Sequence record: PQ511149.1
Source of the DNA: Escherichia phage NHEP11
Strand: one strand, 5' to 3'
Length of the DNA stretch: 64,000 bases
A program made the translations under genes and the position numbers. Position 1 is the first letter of the stretch; every line of letters begins with the position of its first letter. Of this stretch, positions 59,547 through 59,832 are shown one piece after another. The notes under the pieces were generated by a model that worked only from the letters and a program-made list of their open reading frames with translations, searched no databases and had not been told where the DNA came from.

Positions 59547-59634
59547 TATTTTTCCTTTCAATTCAGTATAAGAGAGTTAATTCTAACATTAATTTTATAA
59601 AGCGTAATAAATAATAGGTAACTAAGGAGATATT

Positions 59635-59832
59635 ATGTTTAAACTTCCATCGTTAATCAACGCTATTAAAGGCAATAAAAAGAAAACTGCTATCGCTGCA
59701 ATAGTTGTAGGTGGCATTATTTCATGGAACTTCGGGATTGCACCATTGTTAGTTGCTAATGGTATTATAGTTCCTTCTGTTCCATTGGATACTGTAGTTG
59801 ATTTGGCCTTTGCTATTATAGGACTTGTTTAA
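59635..59832 (+). CDS. small membrane protein on the opposite strand
   Basis: 65 aa, two hydrophobic segments; AAGGAGA SD 7 nt before ATG; sits in the 56-61 intergenic region. Confidence 0.4.
   Translation: MFKLPSLINAIKGNKKKTAIAAIVVGGIISWNFGIAPLLVANGIIVPSVPLDTVVDLAFAIIGLV

Follow-up and report, generated by a model that had tools for sequence, protein, structure and literature searches.

The window analyzed here is a stretch of 64,000 nucleotides from Escherichia phage NHEP11, an RB69-like (Mosigvirus) T-even phage; a 1.1-kb query around the locus described here was 97%-98% identical to many Mosigvirus genomes. Between gene 56 (dCTPase/dUTPase) and gene 61 (DNA primase), both on the minus strand, lies a plus-strand open reading frame (ORF) that starts with ATG and encodes a protein of 65 amino acids, MFKLPSLINAIKGNKKKTAIAAIVVGGIISWNFGIAPLLVANGIIVPSVPLDTVVDLAFAIIGLV (Table 1). 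Its surroundings are soc, 56, 61 and 61.1, and the products of genes 56 and 61 are 71% and 74% identical to T4 gp56 and gp61, respectively (tblastn). The original prediction had described a plus-strand 65-aa ORF with an AAGGAGA Shine-Dalgarno (SD) sequence, located between genes 56 and 61 and converging on the gene 61 stop. All of this was borne out: the ORF is present, AAGGAGA occupies 59624-59630, and the two stop codons overlap on a shared TTAA. No minus-strand ORF longer than 31 aa in the ORF list overlaps the gene, and an Rfam search of 58900-60300 returned no match.

Table 1. Features at the 56-61 locus and related sites (positions refer to the window unless a contig is named)
Feature	Position	Strand	Basis or remark
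Gene 56 (dCTPase/dUTPase), ATG at 59546	59025..59546	-	phrog_173, E 1.9e-45
MotA-type middle-promoter-like site of gene 56: CGCTTTA (59604->59598), 12 nt, TAGAAT (59585->59580)	59580..59604	-	
Candidate gp55-type late promoter box AATAAATA, A(-13) variant of TATAAATA	59606..59613	+	21 nt before ATG; WATAAATA site before SD-bearing ORF
Shine-Dalgarno TAAGGAG, 5 nt upstream of ORF ATG	59623..59629	+	sequence
Small membrane-protein CDS, 65 aa + stop, RB69ORF029w ortholog, phrog_2024	59635..59832	+	ORF list, profile match
TTAA, 4-nt overlap of ORF stop (+) and gene 61 stop (-)	59829..59832		sequence, ORF list
Gene 61 (DNA primase)	59829..60851	-	phrog_47, E 3.8e-102
sp	62229..62522	-	separate gene, other PHROG than ORF
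Imm-like gene	62586..62834	-	separate gene, other PHROG than ORF
Holin gene t, 219 aa	35051..35710		phrog_860, E 4e-101
WATAAATA site before gp36	30249		before SD-bearing ORF
WATAAATA site before t	35024		before SD-bearing ORF
WATAAATA site before soc	59011	-	before SD-bearing ORF
Remaining WATAAATA site	8024	-	
Remaining WATAAATA site	22939	-	
Remaining WATAAATA site	25215	+	
Remaining WATAAATA site	30762	+	
Type B paralog, L022	2305..2508	+	
Type B paralog, L020	2805..3008	+	
Type B paralog, L007	about 2707..2907	+	
Type B paralog, L025	1501..1701	+	
Type B paralog, L026	1501..1701	+	

Judged by its profile match, its distribution and its substitution pattern, the ORF is a protein-coding gene, far beyond what chance would produce. 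Residues 1-65 align to positions 1-65 of the 65 in phrog_2024 (E 1.4e-26), a family annotated in PHROG as "unknown function." Conservation across relatives, which the original prediction had named as its own test, is extensive: a tblastn search with the protein identified 692 phage records, with coverage of at least 80% and an intact frame in 685 of them. The counterpart converges on gene 61 at every locus examined, with identical position and orientation in HX01, RB69, T4, CJ20, ESCO47, the 173-kb metagenomic phage L020, JS10 and Marfa. Adjacency to the gene 61 stop extends over five genera (Mosigvirus, Tequatrovirus, Gaprivervirus, Dhakavirus and Marfavirus), and the 4-nt stop overlap recurs in T4, RB69, JS10 and Marfa.

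Selection on the ORF was estimated from 17 loci of three genera using Nei-Gojobori rates. Where dS was unsaturated, within Mosigvirus and Tequatrovirus, dN/dS was ~0.08-0.15 (for example, 0.078 for the window vs. L006, 0.109 for the window vs. ESCO47 and 0.121 for T4 vs. L009); it was somewhat higher within Gaprivervirus (0.25-0.47). Between the Mosigvirus and T4 copies dS was saturated, with 52%-54% identity in the protein and ~57% in the nucleotides. Eighteen alignment columns are invariant, including W31-N32-F33, P37, G43, P47 and V55-D56. The retention of these protein motifs, together with the low dN/dS, points to purifying selection on the protein and not to conservation of a regulatory spacer. 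The opposite-strand small membrane protein gene proposed at the outset is genuine, given the phrog_2024 match, the dN/dS and the predicted helices described below.

The gene is already catalogued, as RB69ORF029w and phrog_2024, and is uncharacterized; its detection here is mostly a correct rediscovery. RB69ORF029w is 97% identical to the window protein and lies on the identical strand and in the identical place between 56 and 61, without substantive difference, as the same gene in a close RB69 relative. The HX01 RefSeq record and most newer genomes label it a hypothetical protein, and the database names read for its cluster were all "hypothetical" or "uncharacterized." The depositors of one Tequatrovirus ortholog called it "Holin," a label that comes from annotation and does not amount to a test. 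A literature search covering the ORF, unannotated ORFs of T4 and antisense or late transcripts found no paper on the ORF. As a side note on annotation, the HX01 RefSeq record (NC_018855.1; L001) contains several dubious calls (L001 1380..1559, 6899..7103 and 3539..3616): small T4-type ORFs bear implausible names ("molybdenum ABC transporter" for a 59-aa ORF, "iduronate sulfatase"), and 25-aa ORFs are called, one of them across the start of gene 56.

We found the T4 ortholog in the 309-nt gap between dam and 61, as a 66-aa ORF (NC_000866.4 17738..17938, plus strand; L002 3239..3439) whose product is 52% identical to the window protein (tblastn). The notion that the ORF had replaced what T4 carries in this interval is not supported. 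Like the window ORF, the T4 ORF has a strong SD (AAAGGAGG), a box 21 nt upstream (GATAAATA) and a stop overlapping that of gene 61. The RefSeq order in T4 is soc, segF, 56 (with oriA at its 5' end), dam, the gap without annotation, and 61. A Pharokka-annotated T4 assembly names it phrog 2024, and the exact T4 protein sequence is recorded only from read-assembly gene calls, without an NCBI protein. The JS10 RefSeq record (NC_012741.1) likewise has no feature under the family ORF, at about 15341..15541 (plus strand; L025 1501..1701).

Whereas dam separates the ORF from gene 56 in T4, dam is absent from the window, so that the promoter region of the ORF abuts the middle-promoter-like site of gene 56. 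Dam and SegF both lack a match throughout the 64 kb of the window. No gene is named 69 in the current T4 annotation, and segF is presumably the former gene 69. The position of segF between soc and 56 is confirmed (PMC2988022). The original prediction had placed oriA, gene 69 and dam in the T4 56-61 interval and had considered none of them recognizable in the window. This stands for the absence of dam and segF; it presumably fails for the location of gene 69, as segF lies on the other side of 56, and it fails for oriA, for which a middle-promoter-like site is recognizable upstream of 56.

Besides type A, to which the window ORF belongs, the family includes a second paralog, type B, of 66-67 aa (MGT.FYQIWKL…WNL..VP.AA.Q…). 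ESCO47 and L020 encode a 67-aa B protein (MGTVFYQIWKL...) directly upstream of A, overlapping the A start by 8 nt, with the late box before B. The order in Gaprivervirus is A then B, and the B copy of CJ20 is degraded. A hairpin downstream in CJ20 was considered as a terminator and rejected, as it lies inside this degraded remnant. In Dhakavirus and in the T4-like phages of Klebsiella, Enterobacter and Salmonella, the copy found next to the gene 61 stop is B, with 109 records in total. Judged from these matches, the A/B family occurs in several genera of enterobacterial T4-like phages, and the occurrence of B alone or in tandem with A is as expected of an actively evolving membrane-protein family.

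The polarity of the ORF is one used only by late transcripts (PMC2988020), so a plus-strand gene in this interval is expected to be expressed late. In T4-type late genes, which depend on gp55, gp33 and gp45, transcription starts about 6 nt downstream of the promoter box. This T4 late promoter is an 8-bp box, TATAAATA; 32 of the 50 T4 sites listed match it perfectly, and the commonest departure from it is A at -13 (9/50 sites; PMC2988020). Just such a variant, AATAAATA, precedes the ORF as a candidate. The motif WATAAATA is under-represented in the window, with eight sites in 64 kb on both strands compared with 16.5 ± 4.2 expected from shuffles. Of the other seven, three stand 19-31 nt before bona fide late genes, with box-to-start distances of 26 nt for gp36, 19 nt for holin t and 31 nt for soc, compared with 21 nt for the ORF. 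An xATAAATA box was observed in six lineages, with 16-22 nt between it and the first ATG of the gene or gene pair: GATAAATA in T4, AATAAATA in both dam-less Tequatrovirus and Dhakavirus JS10, CATAAATA in Gaprivervirus as well as in ESCO47 and L020, and the perfect TATAAATA in Klebsiella phage Marfa. Strong SDs occupy the equivalent place (AAAGGAGG, TAAGGAGG and GGAAGGAGG in T4, dam-less Tequatrovirus and Gaprivervirus, respectively), and the positions of start, SD and stop are conserved across genera. We counted against our preferred explanation that the opening base of the box is not constant (A, G, C or T), the activity of such variants in vivo being unquantified (PMC2988020). From the conserved promoter-like box we infer that the ORF is most likely transcribed late. 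A sigma70 and terminator scan for the ORF gave chance-level promoter matches only and no terminator; a minus-strand TTGATT-17-CATAAT inside the ORF was rejected as a promoter, being at chance level.

On the opposite strand, we lined up the regions upstream of gene 56 at the ATG and compared them by eye. T4 has TTGCTTA, 13 nt and TATAAT, and Gaprivervirus (CJ20, L014) has TGCTT(C/T)A, 11 nt and TATAAT; the MotA-like box of the window (Table 1) has C, not T, at its first position. According to the T4 RefSeq record, the oriA primer is the gene 56 transcript, and oriA initiation has been attributed to a nearby MotA-dependent promoter (PMC3016281). An oriA-type element for gene 56 is recognizable in the window as a candidate by pattern.

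The minus-strand middle-promoter-like site and the plus-strand late box stand back to back in the window (59580-59613). The MotA box TGCTT shares two base pairs with the late box in ESCO47 and CJ20 (TATTTATGCTT; CATAAATA on the opposite strand), an overlap that would account for the C with which their late boxes begin. The late box lies within the spacer of the middle promoter in dam-less Tequatrovirus, and the two elements are separated by dam in T4. The late box is kept in all four of these arrangements, which argues for selection on the box itself.

Hydropathy analysis of the protein revealed hydrophobic stretches at ~18-49 and 51-65, basic residues at K12 and K15-17, and two acidic residues, D52 and D56. 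The C-terminus reads …VVDLAFAIIGLV, and no basic residue follows K17. An AlphaFold2 model built from a 31-sequence alignment (mean pLDDT of 86) consists of an amphipathic N-terminal helix (3-11), a long helix (15-41; pLDDT around 90), a loop (42-50) and a C-terminal helix (51-62). Hydropathy and the model agree on the two hydrophobic segments claimed originally, which correspond to helices 15-41 and 51-62. The positive-inside rule would place the N-terminus and the basic cluster in the cytoplasm, with the NG...P.VP turn facing outward. Midway along the long helix, Asn and Pro are invariant; by analogy with the general behavior of membrane proteins, this suggests that the helix is kinked and associates with another copy of itself or a partner.

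Pfam searches with the window and T4 proteins produced no match even at E <= 10, and NCBIfam and PADLOC searches with the ORF gave none. An exhaustive phmmer search of 1.84 billion representatives recovered T-even clusters only, plus low-complexity matches to the transmembrane (TM) segment; by this search the family is narrow. Word-indexed protein searches returned close relatives only, or were dominated by a prophage family, and Foldseek against BFVD found essentially only orthologs and paralogs.

The prophage family also emerged from a pattern-based scan of viral contigs. The prophage-type contig L015, found in this way, encodes a protein of 92 aa, and the last 45 of these residues match phrog_2024 (E 7.7e-13). 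L015-type proteins of 96 aa (P0012-P0143) are common in Yersinia, Escherichia, Klebsiella, Serratia and Pectobacterium, and one of them, P0050, is found on about 940 contigs. The T-even family (A1) and the prophage family (A2) were matched by hhalign at a probability of 97.3% (E 1.9e-11). The prophage proteins are colinear with the T-even protein from end to end and share with it an N-terminal "II.LIK.G" helix, a TM helix with W-N-[FY]...P, a G..LP..PL turn and the C-terminal helix, but they contain a hydrophilic linker of ~30 aa (…KDELDAQNSHEQNEITLEETRKG…) that the T-even protein lacks. Their genomic setting also differs: the prophage genes lie near lysozyme and KAP NTPase genes, whereas the window ORF lies beside the primase gene. 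They stand last in a conserved module of genes for a GIY-YIG-like 149-aa protein and for proteins of 189, 103 and 96 aa (L016 4670..6291, plus strand; L019 4681..6291), flanked by Phage_lysozyme and KAP NTPase genes. No Pfam, PHROG, NCBIfam or PADLOC family matches the 189-aa and 103-aa proteins, and with partners that lack a family assignment the prophage context gave no function. In one genome the module stands without phage tail genes, beside an EcoRII-type restriction-modification system.

It is through these prophage relatives that holin families come into view. The relatives align to positions 39-117 of 123 in the PF11351 (GTA_holin_3TM) profile, with 13/25 members matching at E <= 0.01. 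The best match (E 3.3e-5) has exactly the gathering score of 24.8 bits; the others, at 17-19 bits, fall short of it. A prophage protein also matches the holin family phrog_3427 faintly. The ORF itself does not reach the PF11351 gathering threshold (24.8 bits). In common with PF11351 members, its product is a small membrane protein of a phage in which hydrophobic helices come after an N-terminal helix, but it has no direct match, no linker and about half the domain length; in place of the three-helix and linker layout, one long TM helix, an amphipathic helix and a 12-residue C-terminal helix are predicted. The link of the ORF to PF11351 is transitive, and kinship with the 3TM-holin superfamily is plausible but unproven. 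ICP1 ORF137, which we take to be TeaA, had no Pfam match at E <= 0.01 and failed to align with A3 by hhalign, a comparison that is uninformative; the ORF numbering of the isolate may differ. TeaA has been assigned to PF11351 by remote homology (PMC7182436).

Measured against holins in general, the protein is small and has at least one TM helix (65 aa; helix 15-41), as holins do. It has no charged hydrophilic C-terminal tail, and its gene is adjoined by soc, 56, 61 and 61.1, with no linkage to endolysin or spanin genes. Lysis genes are scattered in T-even phages, and linkage is a weak criterion there. The window retains the canonical holin gene t, so the ORF is neither the primary holin nor a replacement for t. 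Both T and the ORF product are (predicted) late membrane proteins encoded behind a T4-type late-promoter box in the window, but no sequence similarity was detected between them and they belong to different PHROGs. T4 holin T has one transmembrane helix and a large periplasmic domain. T4 t mutants do not lyse, and the ORF protein therefore cannot be a sufficient holin.

Taken together, these lines of evidence lead us to favor, with a probability of roughly 0.6, a conserved late gene for a membrane-active accessory protein that influences membrane permeability or lysis timing and is not the primary holin. The late, holin-like membrane role is our best guess, drawn from a distant holin-type resemblance. 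RNA polymerase with gp55 would start at the AATAAATA box and produce a leader of ~15 nt with a strong SD, from which the 65-aa protein would be translated. The N-terminal amphipathic helix (3-11) and the basic cluster K15-K17 would be kept in the cytoplasm, and the long helix 15-41 would span the membrane; its invariant W-N-F...P probably kinks the helix and supplies a polar contact through which helices associate. On the external side of the membrane, a short turn would connect to the short hydrophobic C-terminal helix (51-62). The protein would then oligomerize, or pair with another membrane protein, and thereby alter membrane permeability or the timing of lysis.

A serious alternative, if on balance an unlikely one, is a late membrane protein with a role outside lysis, such as late superinfection exclusion, anchoring or helping assembly or packaging, or counter-defense, in which case the likeness to holins would reflect a shared small-helix fold. 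The gene, its predicted topology and its late signals fit such a role equally well, holin hallmarks beyond size and a TM helix are lacking, and the prophage homologs sit beside cargo or defense genes (KAP NTPase, EcoRII restriction-modification) without a recognizable holin-endolysin-spanin cassette. Against it, the only family-level signals come from holin families (PF11351 and, weakly, phrog_3427), PADLOC and NCBIfam gave no match, and the ORF has no similarity to Imm or Sp, both of which are encoded separately in the window. Nor does the late-type polarity of the ORF fit the early expression of these T4 exclusion proteins. The Imm-like gene deserves a remark of its own: its product, an 82-aa membrane protein at the T4 61.4 position between sp and dmd, matches positions 109-188 of 199 in phrog_1039, "immunity to superinfection" (E 1.2e-30), which suggests that 61.4-type proteins are Imm-like.

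A bolder version of the holin-like reading would have the T-even phages, T4 among them, carry an overlooked second protein of the holin superfamily, encoded by one or two paralogs (A, B) with a late promoter of their own, that tunes permeabilization of the membrane in the form of lysis timing, lysis inhibition or the late exclusion of superinfecting DNA. We regard this version as rather doubtful.

A function at the level of RNA, with the coding sequence secondary, is improbable. No terminator-like site was found on either strand in 59800-62600, leaving the plus strand clear for 2.8 kb past the ORF, so a late transcript would presumably run antisense through gene 61. Given the overlapping convergent stops, such an unterminated transcript could act on the mRNAs of primase and other early genes. 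This reading sits poorly with a dN/dS of about 0.1, with amino-acid motifs kept despite saturated synonymous sites and with the conserved strong SD. Nor does it suit L020, where the ORF and gene 61 are set apart by a hairpin (tagggag-gaaa-ctcccta) with a T-run after it. Antisense and protein roles could coexist. The L020 hairpin (3196..3230) is possibly a bidirectional terminator, and an element of this type is absent from the window, RB69 and T4.

That there is no gene here, and that the ORF is a chance reading frame in an AT-rich regulatory spacer (gene 56 promoter, gene 61 3' end) or a decaying holin remnant, is scarcely credible: the ORF is short, goes missing from the curated T4 and JS10 annotations and overlaps upstream with the region of the middle-promoter-like site, and dN/dS in Gaprivervirus and the degraded second copy of CJ20 would fit decay, but the frame is intact in nearly all of the tblastn records, a dN/dS far below 1 already contradicts it, the start, SD and stop are held in place across genera, and the T4 ORF is conserved even though dam separates it from the gene 56 promoter.

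What is new for this catalogued gene is its probable late promoter, its absence from the T4 (NC_000866.4) and JS10 reference annotations, the A/B paralogy and the link to a prophage family that borders the 3TM holins. In the dam/56-61 interval, both annotations overlook a conserved gene under selection. Its family comprises two paralogs, both small membrane proteins, and has widespread prophage relatives near the 3TM-holin family. If the proposed role in lysis timing, or another late role at the membrane, is true, a phage lysis system that ranks among the best studied would gain a component; if the second-holin version is true, the gene would fill a gap in the classic paradigm of T4 lysis.
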